A DNA stretch of 64,000 nt from a virus (IMGVR_UViG_3300017963_000011:32001-96000), one strand, 5' to 3'. Numbered from the stretch's first letter, positions 2,933-23,008 are shown. Numbers and translations: made by a program. The notes: generated from the sequence alone by a model not told the origin.

Positions 2933-5796
2933 TGGCCACTAAGCTACTCGACGGTTTCAGATACGCAGACCAGTACAGCGCCATAAATGGCGATACGTCT
3001 GGTCTCGTCATCGTTACCACGCCAACCGTCGATGGCAATGGATCATTGAGCTTCCAGCGTAGCGCTACCACGGAAGACTCGGCAGGCGTGAAGAAAGCCT
3101 TCACGCCATACCTGGATGTCTCTAAGTACGCCAATCTCAAAGTCTACGCCTACATTGAAGCGGCTGACTTGGCAGATATTGAGTATTTCGATATCATCGC
3201 TAACAGCGGTGGCCTGGAGCCTTACAAAGCCTATGAGGCTCAATATGAGGCGGCTGTTCTGCCGACTTCATTTCCGACGTATCCGTTCACGCGGGTGGCC
3301 AACGGGACATACACGGAGAACATCAACAGTGGCGTTCTCGAACTGACTACGGGCTCTGGCCTCTTCTCCGATCAGGTCTACTACACCAGGGACATGTCGG
3401 TCGACTGGCTTACACCATCGAGCGACAAGTGGCTCTATGTCAAGCATCGTTGCAAGATGCCTGTTGGAGCGCCTACGACTAGCGGTGCATCGTTTGCCAT
3501 GATCGAGGCAAACTATCGTGGCAAGCTCGTTGATCTTGAGCTTGGCGACGGCTTGATCCGTTGGAACTCTGGTGCCGGCAGTTATGGAGTCGACACGACA
3601 ACCGACTTCATCGACATAGAGATTTTCATCCATGAAACAACAGGCGATTTCATTCTCCTTGTGGATGGTGCAGTGGCCACCACTGGAACCGCAATCACTT
3701 CCGCCACAAGCTGGCTCCGGTTCGGAATTCAGTATCACAATCCTGGGTTCGCAGGGATGGCTGAGTGGGAGCATGTTCGTTGGGCAAGGCTAGACGACGC
3801 CGCTTCTTTCGCTGTCTATAGAATACCGAAGGCTGACTTTGTAGATGTCAACGGGGACGCGTTTGTTGGTGATGCCTGGGCGATGCTCGGGTTTTCTCCT
3901 CGTCTCCCGACGTTCCAGATAGGTACACCGGATCTCGAAGAGGTTGCTGAGTACGGCTACCGCATGATCTTTCCGGCACACACAGCCACTCCTACGATCA
4001 AGCTGGACTCTTTGGAAGCTGAGACTCCAATCCTCTATTATGAGGAACCCGTAGTCACTGGAACATGGGAAATTGACAACGAGATCATCGAGCCTTTCAC
4101 AGGAACCGTAATAGACAGCCTGAATGATCCTGGCGCGTGGACAGGTTCGGGCGGCGCTGGGACACTCGCGCTCGATGGCGCCTACACTCTGGTAGGCGGG
4201 AGCGCTTTGCTTGTTCCTAAGACGGCAGGATTTGACGCTGCGCTGATCAGTCGAGCGATCGATAGTCAGAACTTCGGCGATTACGATTTCGTTCAGCCGG
4301 AGTTCTACATTGAGGCGTCAGAAGTCAGTAAACTTCGTGGCATCTTCCTCTACTTGTGCAACGATGTCTCGAACTATGCCACGTACTACTTCGGAAACAA
4401 CATCTTCGATACGTTCGAGGCAATCACGCCATGGACACCGGACGTGAACGCTTCGGTGGCTCTGGACACCGTACATGTAATAGAAGGAAGCAAGTCGGTC
4501 AAGCTGACCAACGACTCTGCCGGCCCGGCTGTTTATACTGGCGCGTCGAGAACGTATGATCCGTTTGCGCTTTATGCGCCACTCTTCTATACGTTCTATC
4601 TTACGACGGCAGAGGCAGCGAATCTAACGAATTTCAAGATCACCTTTACCGATGGCGGTGGAACTACATATTGGGAGTTCAGTTCTTTCTCGGCGGGGTG
4701 GAACCGTTTTGAAATCAACTCTACCAATTTCACTGGCCAGACCGGGACTCCAACGCTCACAAACATCACGCAAGTTGACATTGAGATCAAGACTTCTACA
4801 ACTGGCATCTCGATATACCTCGATAACTCGCGTTTCAGCATTCCCTGGAACGATATCCAGGAAGGATGGAACAGAGGCTTCTTCAAAGTCAAAGATCCAG
4901 CGTACACACTTGGCACGGTTGACTATACGGCCATTGATCTAGTCTACCTCAAGTATGTGACTTTCCAGGAAGAGGCAATTTCAACATTCAGGTGGGACAG
5001 TCTCTCTCGCTTCAGCAATCTCGTGATTGACAATGCAGTCAAGGTCTTCCTTGACTATTCAGATTTCGTAGACAGCCCTAGCAGCCTCAAGTTTGATAAG
5101 CTGTTCGGGGAACTCTATGGTGGAGCGTTTCGCGATTATGCAGTGACGAGAGACTATAACGTATTCGACAAGCTCGCCGCACGCTTCAAGATTAGCCAGG
5201 ATGACGTTGACCGAGTTGACAAGTTCCAAGTAATCCTGGACGAGACGAACAAGTATGAGAAGTTCAGGGCGTTCACGCAATGGACCAAACGCTATGATGG
5301 ATCATACTTGCCAGCGTTTGTGTATGGCACCCTCATGGAGGACTTTGAGACAATAGGTGACTTCACTCCAGGTGCCGACACGGCTCTCTCAGCAAACACA
5401 ACGCAGTTCACAGAAGGCACACAATCTGTCAAGGCTGATTACTCGGGCGCTGGTGGTGAAGCTCTAACTGAGAAGAACTACACATCCGGTCTTGACTTCA
5501 CAGGACAGACCGCTGTTGATTTCTATATCCCAGCCGGGATGATAGGCAACATCAACTCGGTTAGCGTTCGTCTGTGGGAAGGCAGCGACTACAGCCAATA
5601 CGATTATCAGCTTTCGTTTATCGGAGGCTGGCAGACATTGAGTTTCAACCCGAACTTGCCAGATTACGAGAGCGCCTCTGGACTGACGCGTGAAAGCGTG
5701 ACAAAGGTTACTTGGCTTTACGATGCTACCACGGTTGTCACCGGATTTTCGTGGGATAATATGCGAATGTCCGATTGGGCATTGGTGTTTCCGTAG
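2932..5796 (+). CDS. Large tail protein with repeated carbohydrate-binding-like beta-sandwich modules
   Basis: ATG at 2932 overlaps the previous stop; internal repeats (EGSKSVK/EGTQSVK, GWNRF/GWNRG/GWQTL, IYLDN/FRWDS/FSWDN). Confidence 0.6.
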   Translation: MATKLLDGFRYADQYSAINGDTSGLVIVTTPTVDGNGSLSFQRSATTEDSAGVKKAFTPYLDVSKYANLKVYAYIEAADLADIEYFDIIANSGGLEPYKAYEAQYEAAVLPTSFPTYPFTRVANGTYTENINSGVLELTTGSGLFSDQVYYTRDMSVDWLTPSSDKWLYVKHRCKMPVGAPTTSGASFAMIEANYRGKLVDLELGDGLIRWNSGAGSYGVDTTTDFIDIEIFIHETTGDFILLVDGAVATTGTAITSATSWLRFGIQYHNPGFAGMAEWEHVRWARLDDAASFAVYRIPKADFVDVNGDAFVGDAWAMLGFSPRLPTFQIGTPDLEEVAEYGYRMIFPAHTATPTIKLDSLEAETPILYYEEPVVTGTWEIDNEIIEPFTGTVIDSLNDPGAWTGSGGAGTLALDGAYTLVGGSALLVPKTAGFDAALISRAIDSQNFGDYDFVQPEFYIEASEVSKLRGIFLYLCNDVSNYATYYFGNNIFDTFEAITPWTPDVNASVALDTVHVIEGSKSVKLTNDSAGPAVYTGASRTYDPFALYAPLFYTFYLTTAEAANLTNFKITFTDGGGTTYWEFSSFSAGWNRFEINSTNFTGQTGTPTLTNITQVDIEIKTSTTGISIYLDNSRFSIPWNDIQEGWNRGFFKVKDPAYTLGTVDYTAIDLVYLKYVTFQEEAISTFRWDSLSRFSNLVIDNAVKVFLDYSDFVDSPSSLKFDKLFGELYGGAFRDYAVTRDYNVFDKLAARFKISQDDVDRVDKFQVILDETNKYEKFRAFTQWTKRYDGSYLPAFVYGTLMEDFETIGDFTPGADTALSANTTQFTEGTQSVKADYSGAGGEALTEKNYTSGLDFTGQTAVDFYIPAGMIGNINSVSVRLWEGSDYSQYDYQLSFIGGWQTLSFNPNLPDYESASGLTRESVTKVTWLYDATTVVTGFSWDNMRMSDWALVFP

Positions 5797-5805
5797 GAGG
5801 TTGAG

Positions 5806-6054
5806 ATGGCATTCTGGTTTGTGACATACAACGGTCACAATGGAGAAATTCATTCCTGCGAAGCCAGGGATGGGGCTTTCGACGAAGAGACCCTCACGAG
5901 AGAGTTTGATACCAGCGGGCCGCCAAACTGGACGCCATCGTACATACCTCTTGAGATTGACGAGACGACGTACAACACGGTATCGGCCAATCCAGAGGGG
6001 TACAAGGTCGATTTCGGAGATACCGAAACTCTTCCATCGGTAGTCCCCGTATAG
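5806..6054 (+). CDS. Small hypothetical tail-module protein
   Basis: Strong SD (GGAGG) upstream; packed in the operon. Confidence 0.6.
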   Translation: MAFWFVTYNGHNGEIHSCEARDGAFDEETLTREFDTSGPPNWTPSYIPLEIDETTYNTVSANPEGYKVDFGDTETLPSVVPV

Positions 6055-6065
6055 GAGGTTAGAGA

Positions 6066-7589
6066 ATGGCAATTTGCTACTTGGATGGCGTTACGGGTGA
6101 CGATGCCAACGATGGTTCCAGTTTCGTTTTGGCCAAGAAGACTTACGCGGCTGCGTTGACAGTTGTTGCCGGCGCAGATCCGCAGATCATCGTTCTGGTG
6201 AGAGGCTACTTCAGAGAAGGTAACTTCGGCGCTCCCAACATTCAGAACGGAAAGTTCCAGCATAACATCTGTCTCGGTCAGGTCATCTTTGATGGCGAGG
6301 GAACGAAAACCAAGTTTTCCGATTACGCAACTCAGGATGGCGTGATTTGGACCGGAGCCATTTTCAAAGACTACACGACAGACTATTTCGTGTGGTCAAA
6401 CAACCTCGGCGGCGTCGGTCACATGTGGTTCGATTGTTCGTTCATCAATAACCTCGGAGGAAGCCCGGACGTTTACAGCTATCCGTGGACTCTCGCGAAG
6501 TTCTACAACTGCACGTTCATCGACATCAACTTCCAGTCCAACATAACGATCATGTCGTCGATCATGGATGCGAACTGCACGGGCGGAAACCCGATCGTCG
6601 CATACAACGCATCTGCCACGGCCAGTTGGCGAGGCACGGGTGGCTGGGACATCGCTACCTATCCGCCTCCATTCACGGATGCTGGCAATGGCGACTATTC
6701 GTTCGATTCCGGCCACGCCCAATTCACGCGATACAGGACATTGGGAATGGATGGTAGCCAGTGTGGCGCGTCCTTCCTTGGCGGGGTGTTCTACCATGAA
6801 CAAGGTCCGGGCATTGGCCTTGATGACCATGTGCTTGGCACATGGGCCAACGATCAGTCCTACTACGATGACTCTTTCGATCCCGTTACTGTCTCGTCAG
6901 GCGTGAACGACAAGATCGACTTCACAGATGACGACGGTACATTCGCTGCTACGGTGGCAGCGGCTTCCTATACGGATGGTGCCACGCTTGCGACGGCCAT
7001 CCAGACAGCGCTGAATGCTACGGCATCGACTCAGACATACACCTGTACGTTCTCGTCAAGTCTGATGCGCTATACGATCGCCAACACAACTGGCGCACTC
7101 CTGAGCCTTCTTTGGAATTCTGGCGCGAACAAGCTGATCACTATCGGCGGCGATATCGGCTTTGACACTACAGCCGATGACACCGGAGCCTTGAACTATC
7201 AATCGGACAACGCAGTCACGGTCGACTCCCTCAACGGGTACACAAGAGTTGTTGTTGTTGGCAGCACATTCGAGATGGACATGGGTCTTGAACCGGCTGC
7301 TACTTCTGCACGAGTGCTCGGCCCTGTAAGTGACTACGGAAGGGCCATCGTTCCGAAAGGTCTGTTCTGGGCGGCGGCCGAGAGCAGCACGGATGTGGTT
7401 GACAATTCGCAGGCCACGTCAACGAGAGAAATCGAAGTGCGTGGACACTCGGCCGTCTTCAATAACACAGACGCGGGAGGTACTACAGACATCGACTGGA
7501 CGATGGTTGCGCGTGGCACGAACATGAGCTTCCTCGCGAAGCAGTGGTGGAACATGAGAGCGGTTCTTAGAAACAACGGGACACCCTAA
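6066..7589 (+). CDS. Virion appendage protein with beta-helix-like N-terminus
   Basis: Starts YLDGVTGDDANDG...AKKT (beta-helix cap motif); CSFINN/NCTFID repeats; SD GGAGG. Confidence 0.55.
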   Translation: MAICYLDGVTGDDANDGSSFVLAKKTYAAALTVVAGADPQIIVLVRGYFREGNFGAPNIQNGKFQHNICLGQVIFDGEGTKTKFSDYATQDGVIWTGAIFKDYTTDYFVWSNNLGGVGHMWFDCSFINNLGGSPDVYSYPWTLAKFYNCTFIDINFQSNITIMSSIMDANCTGGNPIVAYNASATASWRGTGGWDIATYPPPFTDAGNGDYSFDSGHAQFTRYRTLGMDGSQCGASFLGGVFYHEQGPGIGLDDHVLGTWANDQSYYDDSFDPVTVSSGVNDKIDFTDDDGTFAATVAAASYTDGATLATAIQTALNATASTQTYTCTFSSSLMRYTIANTTGALLSLLWNSGANKLITIGGDIGFDTTADDTGALNYQSDNAVTVDSLNGYTRVVVVGSTFEMDMGLEPAATSARVLGPVSDYGRAIVPKGLFWAAAESSTDVVDNSQATSTREIEVRGHSAVFNNTDAGGTTDIDWTMVARGTNMSFLAKQWWNMRAVLRNNGTP

Positions 7590-16791: not shown

Positions 16792-17457
16792 ATGGCCGAG
16801 ACGCACATCAAATTCGTCAACGACACCGTTACTCTCGGCGTCATGATGACGCGCAGGGGCACTCCGGTCACTGGCGAAACCCCCACAGTCGAGATGCGCA
16901 GAATGAGCGATGGCCGTTATTGGGATTGGAACACGCTCGTCTGGAGCACATCACCGACTGGTACAAAAGAGGCAACCCTCGTTGAGAAAACCTGGCTTGG
17001 TGGTTTCTATACAAAGACTTGGGATCATGGAACTACCGATCCTGATGCTCAGGGTGAATACACAGCCATCTATCGCAACGTCGGCGCTCCCAATGATTTC
17101 ACCTCAATCGAGATCTTCTACTTCAGGTTTGACTGGAGCGAGGGAGCCGGTGTTATCGCTGATCAGGTTTGGGAAGAGGCCCTCGCTGACCATCTCGGTA
17201 CAGCCGGCAGTGCGGCCGAGCAGCTTGCCATCGTCCGTGGCATGTGTCAGCAGAACTACATTCTTGACAACACAGTCCACAACTCCCTCGGGCTTCTCCT
17301 TGAGGGACGTATTAGAATTTTCGACACCGCTGCAAACGTGCCTGCTACTGGCGGCGGTAGCGAAACAACCGGGCTCATCGCAACTTACAACATCGAAACA
17401 ACACCTGAGTCCGGTGATCAGGATCTCGTAGACACCTATAGGGTGGTGAAAGCATAG
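16792..17457 (+). CDS. Hypothetical virion protein
   Basis: IADQVWEEALADH.TAGS motif seen in phage structural proteins. Confidence 0.55.
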   Translation: MAETHIKFVNDTVTLGVMMTRRGTPVTGETPTVEMRRMSDGRYWDWNTLVWSTSPTGTKEATLVEKTWLGGFYTKTWDHGTTDPDAQGEYTAIYRNVGAPNDFTSIEIFYFRFDWSEGAGVIADQVWEEALADHLGTAGSAAEQLAIVRGMCQQNYILDNTVHNSLGLLLEGRIRIFDTAANVPATGGGSETTGLIATYNIETTPESGDQDLVDTYRVVKA

Positions 17458-17714
17458 TGTCGATTTGCCTTGCAACAAAAGGCGTCATCTGCGGTAGGAA
17501 GGAAAGGTATCTTACCTACTTTGAGGAGCCGCTTAACCTTACCGTGGTCGAGGAAGAAACCGTCGACCTTGAGGTCGTTGCCGAGGAAGAGATCGATATT
17601 GCTATTACAGAAGAGGAAGAGATCGATCTTCAAGTTACAGAGGAAGAAACGATAGAGCTTACTATCGATGAAGAGGAAGAGATTATTCTAATCGTTACCT
17701 GCTATGAAGACTGA
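17457..17714 (+). CDS. Small very acidic protein with a 10-aa tandem repeat
   Basis: EEETVDLEVV/EEEIDIAITE/EEEIDLQVTE/EETIELTIDE; 30-nt periodicity in the DNA. Confidence 0.55.
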   Translation: MSICLATKGVICGRKERYLTYFEEPLNLTVVEEETVDLEVVAEEEIDIAITEEEEIDLQVTEEETIELTIDEEEEIILIVTCYED

Positions 17715-17740: not shown

Positions 17741-18670
17741 ATGGCGAACAAGACCGCGCTAGTAGGAACGAACCGGGTCAATAGTTCTGGCGATCCAGCA
17801 GTTCAGAACTGGAACACGGGGGATACTCTCACTGACCCTGATGGCAATGTCATCCAGACAGGGGCTAATGCGCCATCTCCTTCTGACGCGACTCCTCAAC
17901 AGGTTGGCACTGGCACTGGTCAGCCTGGAACAAGCAACGACTACTCGCGAGCCGACCATGTTCACCAGACGAACGCGCAGCCCGGCACTGCTACTCCACA
18001 AGACGTGGGCTTGACAGGTGTTGTCGGGACAGCTACAGCTTATGCCCGCGAAGATCACGTTCACGGTGGCGCTGTCGTAGGCACTGCGGGCTATCTGGAA
18101 CAGGCAGCTACGGCAGCGGTGGCCACTTACACGGTGAACAACTACTCTGTCGGTGCTGATAACTTGCTCGTGTTCGTGAATGGCGCCTACGTGCCGAAGG
18201 ATCAGTATACCGAGGACAATCCAACGCAGATCACTTTCACAACCTATCCTGGTCTTCCTTTTGTTGGTAGCGAAAAGATTGTCACATTCGTACCCAAGGG
18301 TGGTCTGGGATTGACAAATCAGCTTTGGGAAAAACAAGTTGCTGGAGCAAGTCAAGCAGTCTTCAATCTGGCGGGTTCTTACGATGTCGGCACTCACAGT
18401 CTTCTCGTGTTTGTCGATGGGACTCTCAATCTCGTAGGCGCCAGCGAGGACTACCAAGAGACGGGTACGCAGCAAGTCACGTTCAACACTCCTCTTTCTG
18501 GTGGAGAAGAAGTCCTCTTTCTCGTTCCGCGAGGATCTACAACCGAGAACTCTGGAGCGTACAGCGCTGGAACCCCCGGCGACTGGAATGGTGCTCCGAC
18601 AACGATCGGCGATGCGCTTGATAGGCTCGCCGCAGAGCTTTCGAGACTCATCGGATATCCGATTCCGTAA
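17741..18670 (+). CDS. Tail fibre-like protein 1
   Basis: YSRADHVH/YAREDHVH repeats; two LLVFV(N/D)G modules. Confidence 0.65.
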   Translation: MANKTALVGTNRVNSSGDPAVQNWNTGDTLTDPDGNVIQTGANAPSPSDATPQQVGTGTGQPGTSNDYSRADHVHQTNAQPGTATPQDVGLTGVVGTATAYAREDHVHGGAVVGTAGYLEQAATAAVATYTVNNYSVGADNLLVFVNGAYVPKDQYTEDNPTQITFTTYPGLPFVGSEKIVTFVPKGGLGLTNQLWEKQVAGASQAVFNLAGSYDVGTHSLLVFVDGTLNLVGASEDYQETGTQQVTFNTPLSGGEEVLFLVPRGSTTENSGAYSAGTPGDWNGAPTTIGDALDRLAAELSRLIGYPIP

Positions 18671-18679
18671 GGAGATGGC

Positions 18680-19444
18680 ATGGCAAACGTAATAGCGATG
18701 ACTGGCAAGCCAAGCATCAACGCATCCAACGACCCTGAGCTTCGTAACTGGAACACAGGGGATACGCTGGTCACTCCTGATGGAAACGTGATCATGGTCG
18801 GTACTCCATCGAGCGCCGAATTGGCAATTCCAGATGGGGATGCCACGCCAGATATCAGTGGTGGCGAGAACTTCAAGACTGTGAATACAGTTTTGACGAC
18901 GATCACGAACTTCATCAATGGTGTCGCCGGAACCAGAATTCGCGTTAGAATCACAGACACAAATACCATCATCTCCGGTACGCTCACAAAGACGGGACGG
19001 ACGATCGTATGTCTCGTCGGCGACGTCTTTGAGTGGGTTTATGATGGTGCTAGTTGGATTCAGGTCGGTGGCAATGTAGGCATGGGTGCCTACATTCGGT
19101 ATCAGACTCCTATTGATGTTACTGCCGGCACCTGGATTGGCAATACTGTTATCGTTTACACAACGATTCCAATGGCTTCTTGGCTTCCTCGTCTTGGAGT
19201 GGATATGGTGCATGTGTCTTGCAAGGTGAATGCGTCGGCCGGCACACCTACTCTTTTAGCGAGAGCCGTTGGCGATACGGATAATACCCTGGCCCGCGTT
19301 GTAGCCAATTACACTACGGGTTTCTTTGGAGGCGAAGACTTCTTTGTCAAGCTGAATGATGCTGGCAATTTCGAGGCTAGATGGTGGACGGCTTTCACAC
19401 CGGCTGGCTGGAACAACCTATATCTTGAAGGCATCACACTCTAG
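18680..19444 (+). CDS. Tail fibre-like protein 2
   Basis: N-terminus RNWNTGDTLVTPDGNVI paralogous to the previous gene. Confidence 0.6.
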   Translation: MANVIAMTGKPSINASNDPELRNWNTGDTLVTPDGNVIMVGTPSSAELAIPDGDATPDISGGENFKTVNTVLTTITNFINGVAGTRIRVRITDTNTIISGTLTKTGRTIVCLVGDVFEWVYDGASWIQVGGNVGMGAYIRYQTPIDVTAGTWIGNTVIVYTTIPMASWLPRLGVDMVHVSCKVNASAGTPTLLARAVGDTDNTLARVVANYTTGFFGGEDFFVKLNDAGNFEARWWTAFTPAGWNNLYLEGITL

Positions 19445-19453
19445 GAGGACGAC

Positions 19454-20047
19454 ATGGCAAATATTCCTGCGCTTGCGGGCTATCAAACAGCTAACGGAGA
19501 AGCTGCTCCTGCCAAGTTCGGCGGCAGTGATGTCCTTACAGATCCTAACGGGAATGTCCTCCTGACCGCTGTCGGTGGTGCTGGTTCTATCGTGCCATTC
19601 GATACTCCAGTCATTGTCATGGCATATAACAACACGCTCTATAGTGGAGCTACAACTGGCTCTCCATGGAACTACTCTAGCCAACACGCATTCAATGGTG
19701 TGATCGATCTTAGTGGCTTGACACCGGCAATTCCTTCTGGCGCTAAAGCTGTGATTCTGGTAACACTGGCCAATCTGTACAATACAGTGGGGGGTGCAGC
19801 GCGAGTCATTAACATGTACGCTGCCAAGCTGCATGCTTCTCTCCCAACCGCAGCGCAATACGTCATGAGTAGCGCATACCATGTCGGTGGCGTTGCCGCT
19901 GGTGCTGAAGGAGTAGAATACGATGCCAATCCGGGTTACGGTATTGTGAATTTCAATGGTGACAGGACCGTGGCTATAGCCGCCTATTCTAACAACAGTC
20001 CAAACAATGCGTACTGGTACTGGAACGTAGCCGGGTACACGATCTAG
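19454..20047 (+). CDS. Tail fibre-like protein 3
   Basis: N-terminus DVLTDPNGNVL paralogous to the previous two genes. Confidence 0.55.
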   Translation: MANIPALAGYQTANGEAAPAKFGGSDVLTDPNGNVLLTAVGGAGSIVPFDTPVIVMAYNNTLYSGATTGSPWNYSSQHAFNGVIDLSGLTPAIPSGAKAVILVTLANLYNTVGGAARVINMYAAKLHASLPTAAQYVMSSAYHVGGVAAGAEGVEYDANPGYGIVNFNGDRTVAIAAYSNNSPNNAYWYWNVAGYTI

Positions 20048-20049
20048 GA

Positions 20050-20580
20050 GTGAACATGCTACCAGTTTTCAAATTGATTTATGATGAGTCAACATATGAA
20101 ATCGTCGACTCGGTGCCGGCGCAACCCGACAATCCTCCGTCAACTCTTGTCGACAAACCCGATGGCTTTACCTGGGACGAGCGCACTCTCTGGAAATACG
20201 ACCCTACAGAAGAAGAAGTCGTCCAGAAAACCGGCCAGGAGTATGACGATGCTCTCGCGTTAATCAAAGCGAAGATCGCCTCTGATCTCGCCTTGGAGTA
20301 TACCCGCAAGAACCTCGAAGACATTTTCACGGTCATGGGCTCGATGGAGGCTATGCTCGACTGCACAAATCAGATCGTGCAGAAAGTCATGAATGAGGAT
20401 ACGATCACACAGGCTGAGAAGGACGCCTTCAATCTTCTCGTAAATACTTGTTCGTCCAAGTTCAAGCTAACGCTGACCAACGTTACACAAGCCATCGCCG
20501 ATGGTATGAAGGCGAAGAAAGAAAAGGCCCGTGATACCGAGACAGACATGAAGAACGATCCTAGGTGGCCGTATTCATAG
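20050..20580 (+). CDS. Possible tail fibre assembly chaperone
   Basis: Follows the fibre genes; WKYD motif followed by a helical region. Confidence 0.4.
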   Translation: MNMLPVFKLIYDESTYEIVDSVPAQPDNPPSTLVDKPDGFTWDERTLWKYDPTEEEVVQKTGQEYDDALALIKAKIASDLALEYTRKNLEDIFTVMGSMEAMLDCTNQIVQKVMNEDTITQAEKDAFNLLVNTCSSKFKLTLTNVTQAIADGMKAKKEKARDTETDMKNDPRWPYS

Positions 20581-20609
20581 AGTGTAGCGCTACAACGAGG
20601 GGGTATTAA

Positions 20610-21599
20610 ATGGGAAGGGATGGGGCAGTGGCCGATCAGATTAGAATTCTGGTCGTCGATAATGACGAAACATCTATCCAGTCTCTTCGAGACATGCTTG
20701 GTGAATATGATTTCGAGGTCGAGGACGTTCGGGATTCTCGCAAAGTCCTAGATCATCTTCGACAAACCAATGACTATTCTCTTCTCATTCTTGACATCAA
20801 CATGCCTCACAAGGATGGCGTGACGCTGGCGTCTCAGGTCAGAAATACTCTTCACTACGACACGCCTATCTTGTTCGTATCGGCTGATATCAGCAAGACC
20901 AACCTATCGCGCATTCGTAGAATGAGTCTCGGTGGCCACACCGTAGAGTTTCTGAAGAAGGGTAGCTTCAATTCAGAGATCCTCTTCAACGTAGCTATGG
21001 CCTTGATCAAGGAACGCATCTCCACAAACAACGTTTCTGAGATCAAAGGACGCGTTTCCAAGATGCAGAAATCCCAGGATGAGATCAAAGAAACAATATC
21101 TGATTTCATCCTGAAGCTGGAAGACAAGCCACTCGTGTCCATTGATCATTGCAAGGCTCAATCCGAGGAACTTGTGAAGTCCCTTCGCAAGGAGGTCATT
21201 GGCATCACCCTCGGGGAAGCTAGTAAGAAACTAGATGAGGCACTGAAGCCTGAGCCTCTCGCTGTGAGGATTGGCGCCGCGCTCACGGAGAAGCCCCAAG
21301 CTATCGAGCCTGCTCTTGAACCAAATCTCATGTTTGCAAAGACACGCCAAGCCGCCGCATGGAAGATGGCCGTCTATTTCTTGCTCGTTATCTTTGCTGG
21401 GCTCTGCATTTTCTGGGGAAACATGTGGACCAAAGCTGATCATGCCGACGATGGGGTTCGTAAGCTAGAGATCCAGCAAAAGCAAGTTATCGATACGATG
21501 CAACAACAAACGACTGCGATGAAATCTCATTTCAGGCGTCTTCAGAAAATGTTCAAGTCCAACCCAAGCATGTGGGTTACAACCAAAACGCACCCGTAA
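20610..21599 (+). CDS. Response-regulator receiver domain fused to coiled coil, one TM helix and a C-terminal coil
   Basis: ILVVDND, LLILDINMPHKDG (phospho-acceptor Asp), PILFVSA, FLKK; TM segment MAVYFLLVIFAGLCIFW. Confidence 0.8.
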   Translation: MGRDGAVADQIRILVVDNDETSIQSLRDMLGEYDFEVEDVRDSRKVLDHLRQTNDYSLLILDINMPHKDGVTLASQVRNTLHYDTPILFVSADISKTNLSRIRRMSLGGHTVEFLKKGSFNSEILFNVAMALIKERISTNNVSEIKGRVSKMQKSQDEIKETISDFILKLEDKPLVSIDHCKAQSEELVKSLRKEVIGITLGEASKKLDEALKPEPLAVRIGAALTEKPQAIEPALEPNLMFAKTRQAAAWKMAVYFLLVIFAGLCIFWGNMWTKADHADDGVRKLEIQQKQVIDTMQQQTTAMKSHFRRLQKMFKSNPSMWVTTKTHP

Positions 21600-21608
21600 G
21601 GAGGTAGC

Positions 21609-22103
21609 ATGGCACTGGTGACGAAGAACGATATCAGGAGTACGGAGACCCATTCATACGCATTGAAAGGGCTCGGTGAAATCCGATACGTCGATCTCCC
21701 CCGTGGCTACATCAAGATCATCAACGACTTCCCACAGAAGTGCCTCATCAGAGAGACCTTTCCCATCATCGGCACGAAGTACGTCCACAAGGTGATGGCT
21801 CCAATGCTGATGAAGGTGATGGAGTTCATCCGCCACAAGGTCGAGTACGATGCGGAATGGGAGTACATCCTTCACGGGAGCATCTTCAATCCGAGGCACA
21901 TGTGGTATCACAAGAACAAGCCGATCTCGATGCATGCTTTCGCGGCTGCGGTCGACATCAATCCATGGGAGAACCAGCCCGGAACGCCCGGCACCATCCC
22001 CCAACATATCATCCACCTGTTCGAGTCCAATGGTTTCAAGTGGCTCGGGCACATGGATCGACCCGACCCGATGCACTTCGAGGTGGACATCGATAAGCTC
22101 TAA
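21609..22103 (+). CDS. M15-family peptidase endolysin
   Basis: NPR...SMHAFAAAVDINP...GFKWLG...DPMHFE zinc-peptidase motifs. Confidence 0.85.
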   Translation: MALVTKNDIRSTETHSYALKGLGEIRYVDLPRGYIKIINDFPQKCLIRETFPIIGTKYVHKVMAPMLMKVMEFIRHKVEYDAEWEYILHGSIFNPRHMWYHKNKPISMHAFAAAVDINPWENQPGTPGTIPQHIIHLFESNGFKWLGHMDRPDPMHFEVDIDKL

Positions 22104-22125
22104 ATCAAAAGTTCCAACATTTATC

Positions 22126-22154
22126 TTGCAACATCCTCCGGGGTGTTGTATCTT
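22126..22154 (+). promoter_or_regulatory. Sigma70-like promoter with an internal inverted repeat
   Basis: TTGCAA-N17-TATCTT; overlapping inverted repeat CAACATCC...GGGTGTTG. Confidence 0.45.
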
Positions 22155-22176
22155 TTACGGCAGAAAGGGGGTGAGC

Positions 22177-22563
22177 ATGGCAGAGGAGAAAAAGTACAGT
22201 CCGTGGGAGAGCGTGATCTGGCATTTTCGTTCTCGGAAATCCAGGCTTGCCATGGCAGCGGTGATCGCGATAATCCTTGCCAACAGTAAGTGGGTTCAGA
22301 GCAAACTCAGCCTCGATCCCTCCACCATCCCGGCACTGTCCCAGAACATCGTGATCTGTCTCGGCATCATCATCGCTGCCGTCTCAGGAGAGAAGATCAT
22401 GATGAACGGTAACGGAAATGGGAAGACGCCCGATCCCAAAGAGGGAGTCACACTCAGCGTGGAATCCGTTGTCGACTTGAAGCTCAAGGAGAAGTTACAC
22501 GAGGAACTCGAAAAGGGCCTCGACAAACTGACTGACAAGATCAAGGAGAAACTCAACAAATGA
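22177..22563 (+). CDS. Putative holin (two TM helices)
   Basis: SRK motif followed by two hydrophobic segments and a charged tail; next to the endolysin. Confidence 0.6.
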   Translation: MAEEKKYSPWESVIWHFRSRKSRLAMAAVIAIILANSKWVQSKLSLDPSTIPALSQNIVICLGIIIAAVSGEKIMMNGNGNGKTPDPKEGVTLSVESVVDLKLKEKLHEELEKGLDKLTDKIKEKLNK

Positions 22564-22943
22564 TGACCCTGAAGGCCGCAGAAAAGAAGGGCTACGTTCC
22601 GACCAAGATCCAGATCGAGGTGCTCATGCACCCCGAGACAGGCAACATCCTCTATCCCTGCGACGGCTGCGTGACCAAGGCGTATGACACCTACGCCATC
22701 ATCTCCGACCCCCTCTACAACGACGACGGCAAGAAGGAAGACAAGGTGGTCAACCTCGTCTGCAAGAAGCACAAGAAGCGCTACCAGAAACCCTCGGCTC
22801 CGACGTTCGAGGGCATGGTTCGCCTCAACCTTCAGATGCTCGTCGGCAAGAAGTGGGAGAAGATCTCCCAGGCCATGGTCAAGCGCATGCGCAAAAGCCA
22901 GGGCTGGTTCGACTGGCTCTACCCGGAGGACGACGACGAATGA
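22560..22943 (+). CDS. Hypothetical protein (CxxC...CxxH)
   Basis: Coupled ORF with good codon bias. Confidence 0.55.
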   Translation: MMTLKAAEKKGYVPTKIQIEVLMHPETGNILYPCDGCVTKAYDTYAIISDPLYNDDGKKEDKVVNLVCKKHKKRYQKPSAPTFEGMVRLNLQMLVGKKWEKISQAMVKRMRKSQGWFDWLYPEDDDE

Positions 22944-22979
22944 CTGGCCAGATTTGAGATCAAGGTCAGGTTCTAGGAA

Positions 22980-23008
22980 GCCGGGGCGCAAGGCCCCGGC
23001 TCTTTCTT
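22980..23008. terminator. Terminator between the convergent gene blocks
   Basis: GCCGGGGC-GCAAG-GCCCCGGC followed by TCTTTCTT. Confidence 0.7.

Follow-up and report, generated by a model that had tools for sequence, protein, structure and literature searches.

A phage protein joining a two-component receiver to a membrane helix at the head of a lysis cassette: a candidate regulator of lysis timing

Here, we describe REC-TM, a phage protein of 329 residues which combines the receiver (REC) domain of a two-component response regulator with a single transmembrane (TM) helix. Its gene is located at positions 20610..21599 (+ strand) of IMGVR_UViG_3300017963_000011:32001-96000. This stretch of 64,000 nucleotides, in the following called the window and numbered from its first base, comprises bases 32001-96000 of a complete virus genome of 105,134 bp with direct terminal repeats. 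REC-TM directly follows the tail-fibre module and stands at the head of a cassette that contains an endolysin and a holin-like gene. We propose that the protein is a phosphorylation-responsive regulator of hole formation with a role in lysis timing, and assign to this reading a probability of about 0.45. A narrower version, which we put forward with more hesitation, is that the one polypeptide couples a two-component receiver with a membrane helix that controls lysis; by this means, a virulent phage would read a host kinase or acetyl-phosphate and time the firing of its holin.

Phages are known to control the timing of lysis through holin concentration, membrane potential, dual-start antiholins, and lysis inhibition of the T4 type; to our knowledge, no case has been described in which this timing is subject to two-component phosphorylation. 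That lysis timing may be gated in this way had been suggested by a first-pass annotation of the DNA, and the results presented below support this interpretation in part.

Results

The receiver domain

The gene was delineated by an ORF call, and further evidence came from Pfam, an AlphaFold2 (AF2) model, the family alignment, and a strain variant. Its ATG is preceded, at a distance of 6 nt, by the Shine-Dalgarno (SD) sequence GAGGGGG (20597..20603, +), as read from the sequence. The receiver comprises residues ~10-129 (20637..20996, +). Pfam's Response_reg model (PF00072) matched residues 13-101 with an E-value of 8.5e-16 and 58.5 bits (cut-off 30.2), and residues 10-137 align to response-regulator models of NCBIfam. 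In the AF2 model, which was built on six family members, the domain was modelled confidently as a (βα)5 fold (pLDDT ~87), with strands at residues 12-16, 36-40, 58-62, 87-91, and 112-116, and helices at residues 20-31, 43-52, 70-81, 96-107, and from 122 onwards. A Foldseek comparison with CheY4 (4h60) gave a TM-score (TMt) of 0.86 and an rmsd of 2.1; the structure prediction, which had been named as a check, thus returned the CheY fold.

Most signature residues of a receiver are at their positions, as determined by alignment to CheY and ARR1 from the PDB. D62 at the end of β3, within the motif DINMPHKDG, aligns with D57 of CheY and occupies the phospho-acceptor position; it is present in every family member covering the site. 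S91 (PILFVSAD) is found at the Thr/Ser position after β4 and is invariant in the family. K117, at the Lys position after β5, aligns with the KP lysine of ARR1 and is nearly invariant, and the DxNMPxKDG loop is kept across the family. At the acidic pair after β1, which corresponds to the Mg2+ ligands D12/D13 of CheY, the protein reads D17-N18-D19; all seven relatives covering this site have DD. The annotation had listed an acidic pocket together with the phospho-acceptor Asp, Ser, and Lys. The fold and the latter three residues were found intact, but the acidic pair was not, and judged by its residues the acidic pocket of this copy is only partly canonical.

The membrane module

The receiver is followed by a cytoplasmic helical region (residues 130-249; 20997..21356, +), which was delimited by AF2 secondary structure, the family alignment, and Foldseek. 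In the model, α5 of the receiver continues unbroken as a stalk to about residue 172, and further helices extend up to residue 249. This cytoplasmic part is helical, with low pLDDT values after residue 140. The combination of receiver and stalk resembles WspR (3bre) and Pseudomonas aeruginosa RssB (3f7a) according to Foldseek. The only hydrophobic segment of the protein is a single TM helix at residues ~250-272 (21357..21425, +), with a Kyte-Doolittle value of 2.13. The net charges of its flanks are +1 on the N-terminal and -1 on the C-terminal side, which fits an N-in/C-out orientation. A helical tail of 57 residues with a basic end (21426..21596, +) remains for the extracytoplasmic side, as deduced from AF2, the family alignment, and analyses of hydropathy and charge. 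The domain order that had been read from the sequence, a receiver fused to a coiled coil, one TM helix, and a C-terminal coil of roughly 60 residues, is thereby reproduced. An internal start at M152, which would give a short form without the receiver, comparable to the family member P0006 introduced below, is unsupported; the sole AGGA is 13 nt upstream.

A small family under selection

The REC-stalk-TM-tail architecture defines a very small, unnamed family of about ten members among 15 billion sequences, which have 31-47% identity. Four relatives were found by a word-indexed search of ~5.8 billion clusters. An exhaustive HMMER search with the 200 non-REC residues against 1.84 billion representatives yielded P0002, P0003, P0006, and P0007 only. 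P0008 and P0009 were added by a cluster look-up, and L005 is a member on a metagenome contig. Looking up the C-terminal 200 residues in the ESM Atlas gave nothing above chance. Scans of IMG/VR with queries from the family, the M15 endolysin, the holin-like protein, P0006, P0007, and the primase identified no relative of the cassette, the sole match (L022) being an unrelated phage. A scan of genome contigs detected generic receivers only. Similarly, a tblastn search in cultured phages gave generic REC matches only, several of which come from records that contain contaminating host DNA. As an example, the receiver match in OQ572403.1 ("UNVERIFIED Pseudomonas phage Y1") belongs to a host Wsp chemosensory operon with WspE-, WspF-, and WspR-like ORFs; this record contains bacterial DNA. 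Several other REC matches of the phage collection look alike, among them many small records named "Listeria phage LM" or "Staphylococcus phage SA".

Conservation reaches beyond the receiver: G147, C181, P238, G264, W273, and several positions of the external tail are nearly invariant. One homologue, P0006 (185 aa), comprises the membrane module but lacks the receiver; it is located on a short contig, and the gene is possibly incomplete. Since such a homologue exists, the membrane module can, by its sequence, occur on its own. A strain variant covers 589 nt of the least conserved part of the gene and differs by 63 substitutions without insertions or deletions; among the 39 differences listed, 31 affect the third base of a codon. 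Because of this bias and the absence of indels, the reading frame is, as far as the comparison of strains can tell, translated and under purifying selection.

Position in the lysis cassette

Between the stop codon of REC-TM and the ATG of the endolysin there are exactly 9 nt, as had been noted, and the stop overlaps the SD sequence AAGGAGG of the endolysin; both genes are probably co-translated. The endolysin (164 aa; 21609..22103, +) is of the M15 type (VanY/L-Ala-D-Glu peptidase; Pfam M15_4, E 2.2e-10). Its profile matches LysB4 and Ply500 (2vo9; catalytic domain), the latter being an L-Ala-D-Glu peptidase that serves a Listeria phage as endolysin, covering the metal-binding motif SxHxxGxAxD...H. 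Neither a signal sequence nor a TM segment was detected in its 164 residues, and because there is no export signal, the enzyme needs a holin. The next gene (22177..22563, +) codes for a holin-like protein of 128 residues, whose hydropathy indicates two TM segments, a weak one (residues 24-42) and a strong one (51-76); it additionally contains the linker NGNGNG and ends in a helical C-terminus that is highly charged. A longer ORF starting at 21850 was considered for this gene and rejected. The holin-like protein matches no family in Pfam, PHROG, or NCBIfam. Apart from REC-TM and this protein, the cassette encodes no membrane protein. A complex prediction for residues 225-329 of REC-TM and the holin-like protein had a score of 0.00, which we count as evidence neither way.

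There is no terminator between the tail-fibre module and REC-TM. The cassette closes at a strong hairpin resembling an intrinsic terminator (22979..23001, +; 9-bp stem with 8 GC pairs), which is located at a convergent junction. The placement at the head of a lysis cassette also held in the one relative whose neighbours are visible: L005 shows the order REC-TM, M15 peptidase (45% identical), holin-like gene (45% identical), and its cassette proteins are 45-47% identical to their phage counterparts. The synteny check that had been suggested for receiver-TM genes beside endolysins thus showed a preserved order in this one relative.

Neither HisKA nor HATPase_c nor a second REC domain was detected across the whole 105,134-bp phage, which extends to the complete genome what had been stated for the window with respect to histidine kinases. 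As the phage lacks a kinase, a phosphoryl donor must come from the host. A tyrosine or serine integrase was likewise not found across the 105-kb phage. The phage is therefore probably virulent, and for the same reason a role of REC-TM in lysogenic conversion is unlikely.

Comparison with lysis-protein families

With respect to holins, the single TM helix and the position of the gene fit, but REC-TM has 329 residues and no match to a holin in Pfam, PHROG, or NCBIfam. Family scans detected no homology to RI, RIII, LydB, or S107. The C-terminal 200 residues gave a marginal match to PHROG 312 (Rz-like spanin; E 0.041), and in a six-frame scan of the genome the sole PHROG 312 match was on the TM helix and tail of REC-TM (E 0.0017); other members of the family have no such match. 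For a profile comparison, seven Rz proteins ranging from lambda to Pseudomonas and Acidovorax phages were aligned. The resulting hhalign probability was 5.7% over 24 columns, which cover the TM helix only, and the assignment to Rz-like spanins was rejected. The layout differs as well: an inner-membrane spanin (i-spanin) has its TM helix at the N-terminus, whereas that of REC-TM is at residues 250-272 of 329, with an external part of 57 residues. No ORF with the lipobox of an outer-membrane spanin (o-spanin) was found in any frame between 15000 and 25000. Due to the short external part, the missing lipobox ORF, and the negative profile test, REC-TM is not a member of the spanins by these sequence features.

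Discussion

Proposed mechanism and its consequences

According to our proposal, REC-TM would be a late-expressed inner-membrane protein of type II (N-in/C-out) belonging to the lysis cassette, whose receiver would sit in the cytoplasm and control the helical membrane module. D62 would be phosphorylated by a histidine kinase of the host or by acetyl-phosphate; this may alter the α4-β5-α5 face and, in turn, the pairing or register of the stalk that is continuous with α5. The change in the stalk could be passed on to the TM helix and the external tail, as an altered self-association or an altered contact with the 2-TM holin-like protein. In this manner, the membrane module would influence the formation of holes, whether by braking it like an antiholin or by assisting the holin-like protein as a co-factor, and lysis would be advanced or delayed depending on the signalling or energy state of the host.

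If this is true, the timing of the burst would be coupled to envelope stress, nutrient supply, or energy state of the host, which would matter for burst size, for the ecology of phages in sediments and seawater, and for attempts to design programmable lysis cassettes. An advantage of the fused form is that sensor and membrane effector are parts of one protein, so that their partnership needs no inference.

Weighing the evidence

Several points speak against a regulator of lysis timing. No family member can be assigned to the holins, antiholins, or spanins by means of Pfam, PHROG, or NCBIfam. In this copy of the receiver, N18 replaces the second Mg-binding Asp; judging from mutants of D13 in CheY, such an exchange could weaken phosphorylation. 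Gene context is visible for two family members only, which are related, and their shared order may be due to inheritance rather than functional linkage. Accessory genes are commonly found where tail-fibre and lysis modules meet. Receivers encoded in a comparable position by cultured Alteromonas phages, which are compared below, are regarded in the literature as auxiliary genes of unknown function (PMC7289586, PMC10579305). Moreover, the membrane module of REC-TM has no detectable homology to the partner proteins in those phages (hhalign 0.1-4.5%, hmmsearch <7 bits), so that the parallel is one of architecture only.

The same observations bear on three other explanations. REC-TM could be a membrane-tethered decoy, a phosphate sink for membrane histidine kinases of the host, which drains or blocks the flow of phosphoryl groups and, towards the end of infection, re-tunes the host's envelope, motility, or stress responses; REC-TM would then not be directly involved in lysis, and the adjacency to the endolysin would be an accident of the module boundary. 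This explanation agrees with the lack of a phage kinase, by which any donor is necessarily the host's, with a TM tether that puts the receiver at the membrane, with the absence of homology to lysis proteins, and with the location at a boundary favoured by accessory genes. In addition, gp30 of phage V22 and gp11 of phage A5 have been classed as CheY-like auxiliary genes (PMC7289586, PMC10579305). However, expression is coupled to the late genes and the endolysin, which leaves little time for reprogramming the host, and receivers recur beside endolysins of three enzyme types. The conservation of the external tail and the cytoplasmic helices and the existence of a homologue without receiver argue that the membrane module is more than a tether. 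On balance, we consider a decoy rather unlikely. A pseudo-receiver, i. e. a fold that serves as constitutive dimerisation or scaffold domain of a holin, antiholin, or other lysis protein and is not phosphorylated, would be in line with N18 at the place of the second acidic residue and with the missing kinase. Many receivers, known as atypical response regulators, indeed act without phosphorylation. For a pure scaffold, one would not expect that D62, S91, K117, and the DxNMPxKDG loop are kept at 31-47% identity and that the relatives retain DD; this explanation thus appears improbable to us.

The protein might also be a structural effector, that is, a true holin (class III-like, with a single TM helix) or a spanin-like component of the inner membrane, with the receiver acting as a modulator only. 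The bitopic N-in/C-out topology, the external helix next to an endolysin, and the fact that no spanin pair is recognisable elsewhere are compatible with this possibility, as are the PHROG 312 matches on TM helix and tail, the only ones in the six-frame genome. It is nevertheless very improbable, given that the Rz profile comparison reached a probability of 5.7% and aligned the TM helix only, that other family members lack the PHROG 312 match, that the external part is as short as 57 residues without a lipobox ORF in or near the cassette, and that a good holin candidate with two TM segments is already present. Regulation of hole formation by a phosphorylatable receiver is, among the readings considered, the one that we prefer.

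Phage background and neighbouring genes

The rightward genes as far as ~23,000 belong to the structural part, whose end is formed by three paralogous fibre-like genes and, in the position of a chaperone, a gene for a protein of 176 residues. A leftward block follows from 23,007, which encodes a primase, a DnaB-type helicase, an SbcCD-like pair, RecA, and a family-B polymerase. Nearly identical DNA is present in sediment and seawater metagenomes, and a soil metagenome contains a diverged strain; no RNA data set was listed among the sequencing runs containing such DNA. A close cultured phage was not found.

The three consecutive genes at 17741-20047 (309, 254, and 197 aa) have the N-terminal motif MAN..A..G...N...P...NWNTGDTL.DPDGNV in common and differ in their C-termini; they look like a paralogous set of tail fibres or receptor-binding proteins whose tips have been exchanged. 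Upstream of them, between structural genes, an ORF of 85 aa (17457-17714) consists mostly of the acidic repeat EEE-I/T-I/V-D-L-x-V/I. The 176-aa protein (20050..20580, +), which follows the fibre-like genes at the end of the tail-fibre module and directly precedes REC-TM, has no match in Pfam or PHROG. It was found in the ORF list, and its tail-fibre-chaperone-like position is that of ORF27 in phage V22 (DUF4376 chaperone); the BLAST similarity to ORF27 is not significant.

Within the cassette, the hairpin scan found a weak stem-loop between the endolysin and holin-like genes (22127..22150, +). The last gene of the rightward operon codes for a soluble, Cys-containing protein of 127 residues (22560..22943, +), and its start overlaps the stop of the holin-like gene. 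It has paired cysteines (PCDGC ... VCKKH), matches no family, and could be a further lysis accessory. A stretch of 35 nt inside this gene (22710-22744) was also encountered, altered at 4 positions, on unrelated contigs from two runs (2.2 kb, 5.5 kb), whose flanks are unlike the phage; the probable explanation is a short motif in common or a coincidental match.

Two observations were made in other phages. In L022 (IMGVR_UViG_3300021963_000439, 5350-6333), which is an unrelated low-GC phage, a tail fibre gene is followed by those for a 69-aa TM protein, a 121-aa protein consisting of a coil and a C-terminal TM helix, and an M15 endolysin. A coil-plus-TM protein thus directly precedes the M15 gene there without a receiver. 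Burkholderia phage vB_E427 (PQ789820.1, 24440-26520; 46 kb) carries a full two-component pair, namely a response regulator of the OmpR type (229 aa) and, following it, a membrane histidine kinase of 464 residues; both are annotated as hypothetical.

Comparison with known systems

In stalked response regulators, the stalk carries the phosphorylation signal by means of a changed oligomerisation. WspR (REC-stalk-GGDEF) and P. aeruginosa RssB are similar to REC-TM in that they have a canonical receiver whose α5 runs into a long helical stalk. They differ with respect to the output, which in REC-TM is not an enzyme but a single-pass membrane module of no known family, and in REC-TM being encoded by a phage without a cognate kinase. 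The literature searched contained nothing relevant on membrane-anchored response regulators.

Membrane or membrane-associated proteins encoded with lysis genes are also known from T4 (holin T with RI and RIII) and lambda (S107/S105), where they determine, upon a signal, when holes are formed. T4 holin T has one TM helix and an N-in/C-out orientation. It shares no homology with REC-TM, and its large domain is periplasmic, whereas REC-TM possesses a cytoplasmic phospho-receiver. A phosphorylation-controlled antiholin or phage lysis protein was not found in the literature searched. Rz-like i-spanins (PHROG 312) share with REC-TM the type-II topology, an external helix, the place beside the endolysin, and a weak HMM match; in contrast, they have an N-terminal TM helix, an external domain of ~130 residues (57 in REC-TM), and an o-spanin partner, and the profile test was negative.

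The closest parallels in arrangement come from cultured Alteromonas phages. In V22 (MN877442), the order is tail fibre, chaperone, papain-like amidase, ORF29, ORF30, ORF31, and ORF32. ORF29 has an N-terminal hydrophobic segment and a coil, ORF30 is an intact REC protein of 149 residues, ORF31 consists of a TM helix and a coil, and ORF32 has two TM segments. In the siphovirus R9Y3 (OM732337), gp13 (N-terminal TM helix plus further helices), gp12 (REC), and gp11 (lysozyme) are encoded with overlaps of 4 nt each. In XX1924 (MN592896), the gene of a 101-aa coiled protein with a C-terminal TM helix overlaps a REC gene ("response regulator") just after the tail fibre. A5 gp10/gp11 is a further pair of this kind. 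V22 gp30 and A5 gp11 were published as a CheY-like auxiliary gene moving together with the module for host recognition, with no function given (PMC7289586, PMC10579305). As in our case, V22, R9Y3, and XX1924 have an intact orphan receiver, no phage kinase, and a location after tail-fibre/chaperone genes and beside an endolysin. The receiver gene is next to or overlaps that of a small bitopic helical protein, in a cassette with a 2-TM holin-like gene. Here, an orphan receiver and a bitopic helical part beside an endolysin are found in fused form: the Alteromonas phages have receiver and membrane protein as separate genes, whereas REC-TM is one polypeptide with its TM helix near the C-terminus and an external tail. 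The endolysins differ too, being a papain-like amidase and a lysozyme there and an M15 peptidase here. The receivers are ~24% identical to that of REC-TM, which is a generic relatedness. Homology of the membrane module to R9Y3 gp13, V22 ORF29/31, the XX1924 partner, and the 121-aa protein of L022 was rejected; a patch C-x-x-Q-x-x-E can be aligned but is not significant.

What recurs is therefore architecture and position. Because this arrangement of receiver and membrane helix recurs across three endolysin types, the comparison favours a functional link with lysis rather than an insertion by chance. On the narrower reading, this would be a phosphorylation-gated lysis clock, which would appear to have emerged several times, both split and fused, in unrelated phage lineages. 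Receivers in the lysis regions of phages are already contained in cultured phage genomes, and REC-TM is a fused variant of this recurrent, uncharacterised receiver-plus-membrane module of public genomes. The split form in the cultured Alteromonas phages makes the idea of lysis control testable now.

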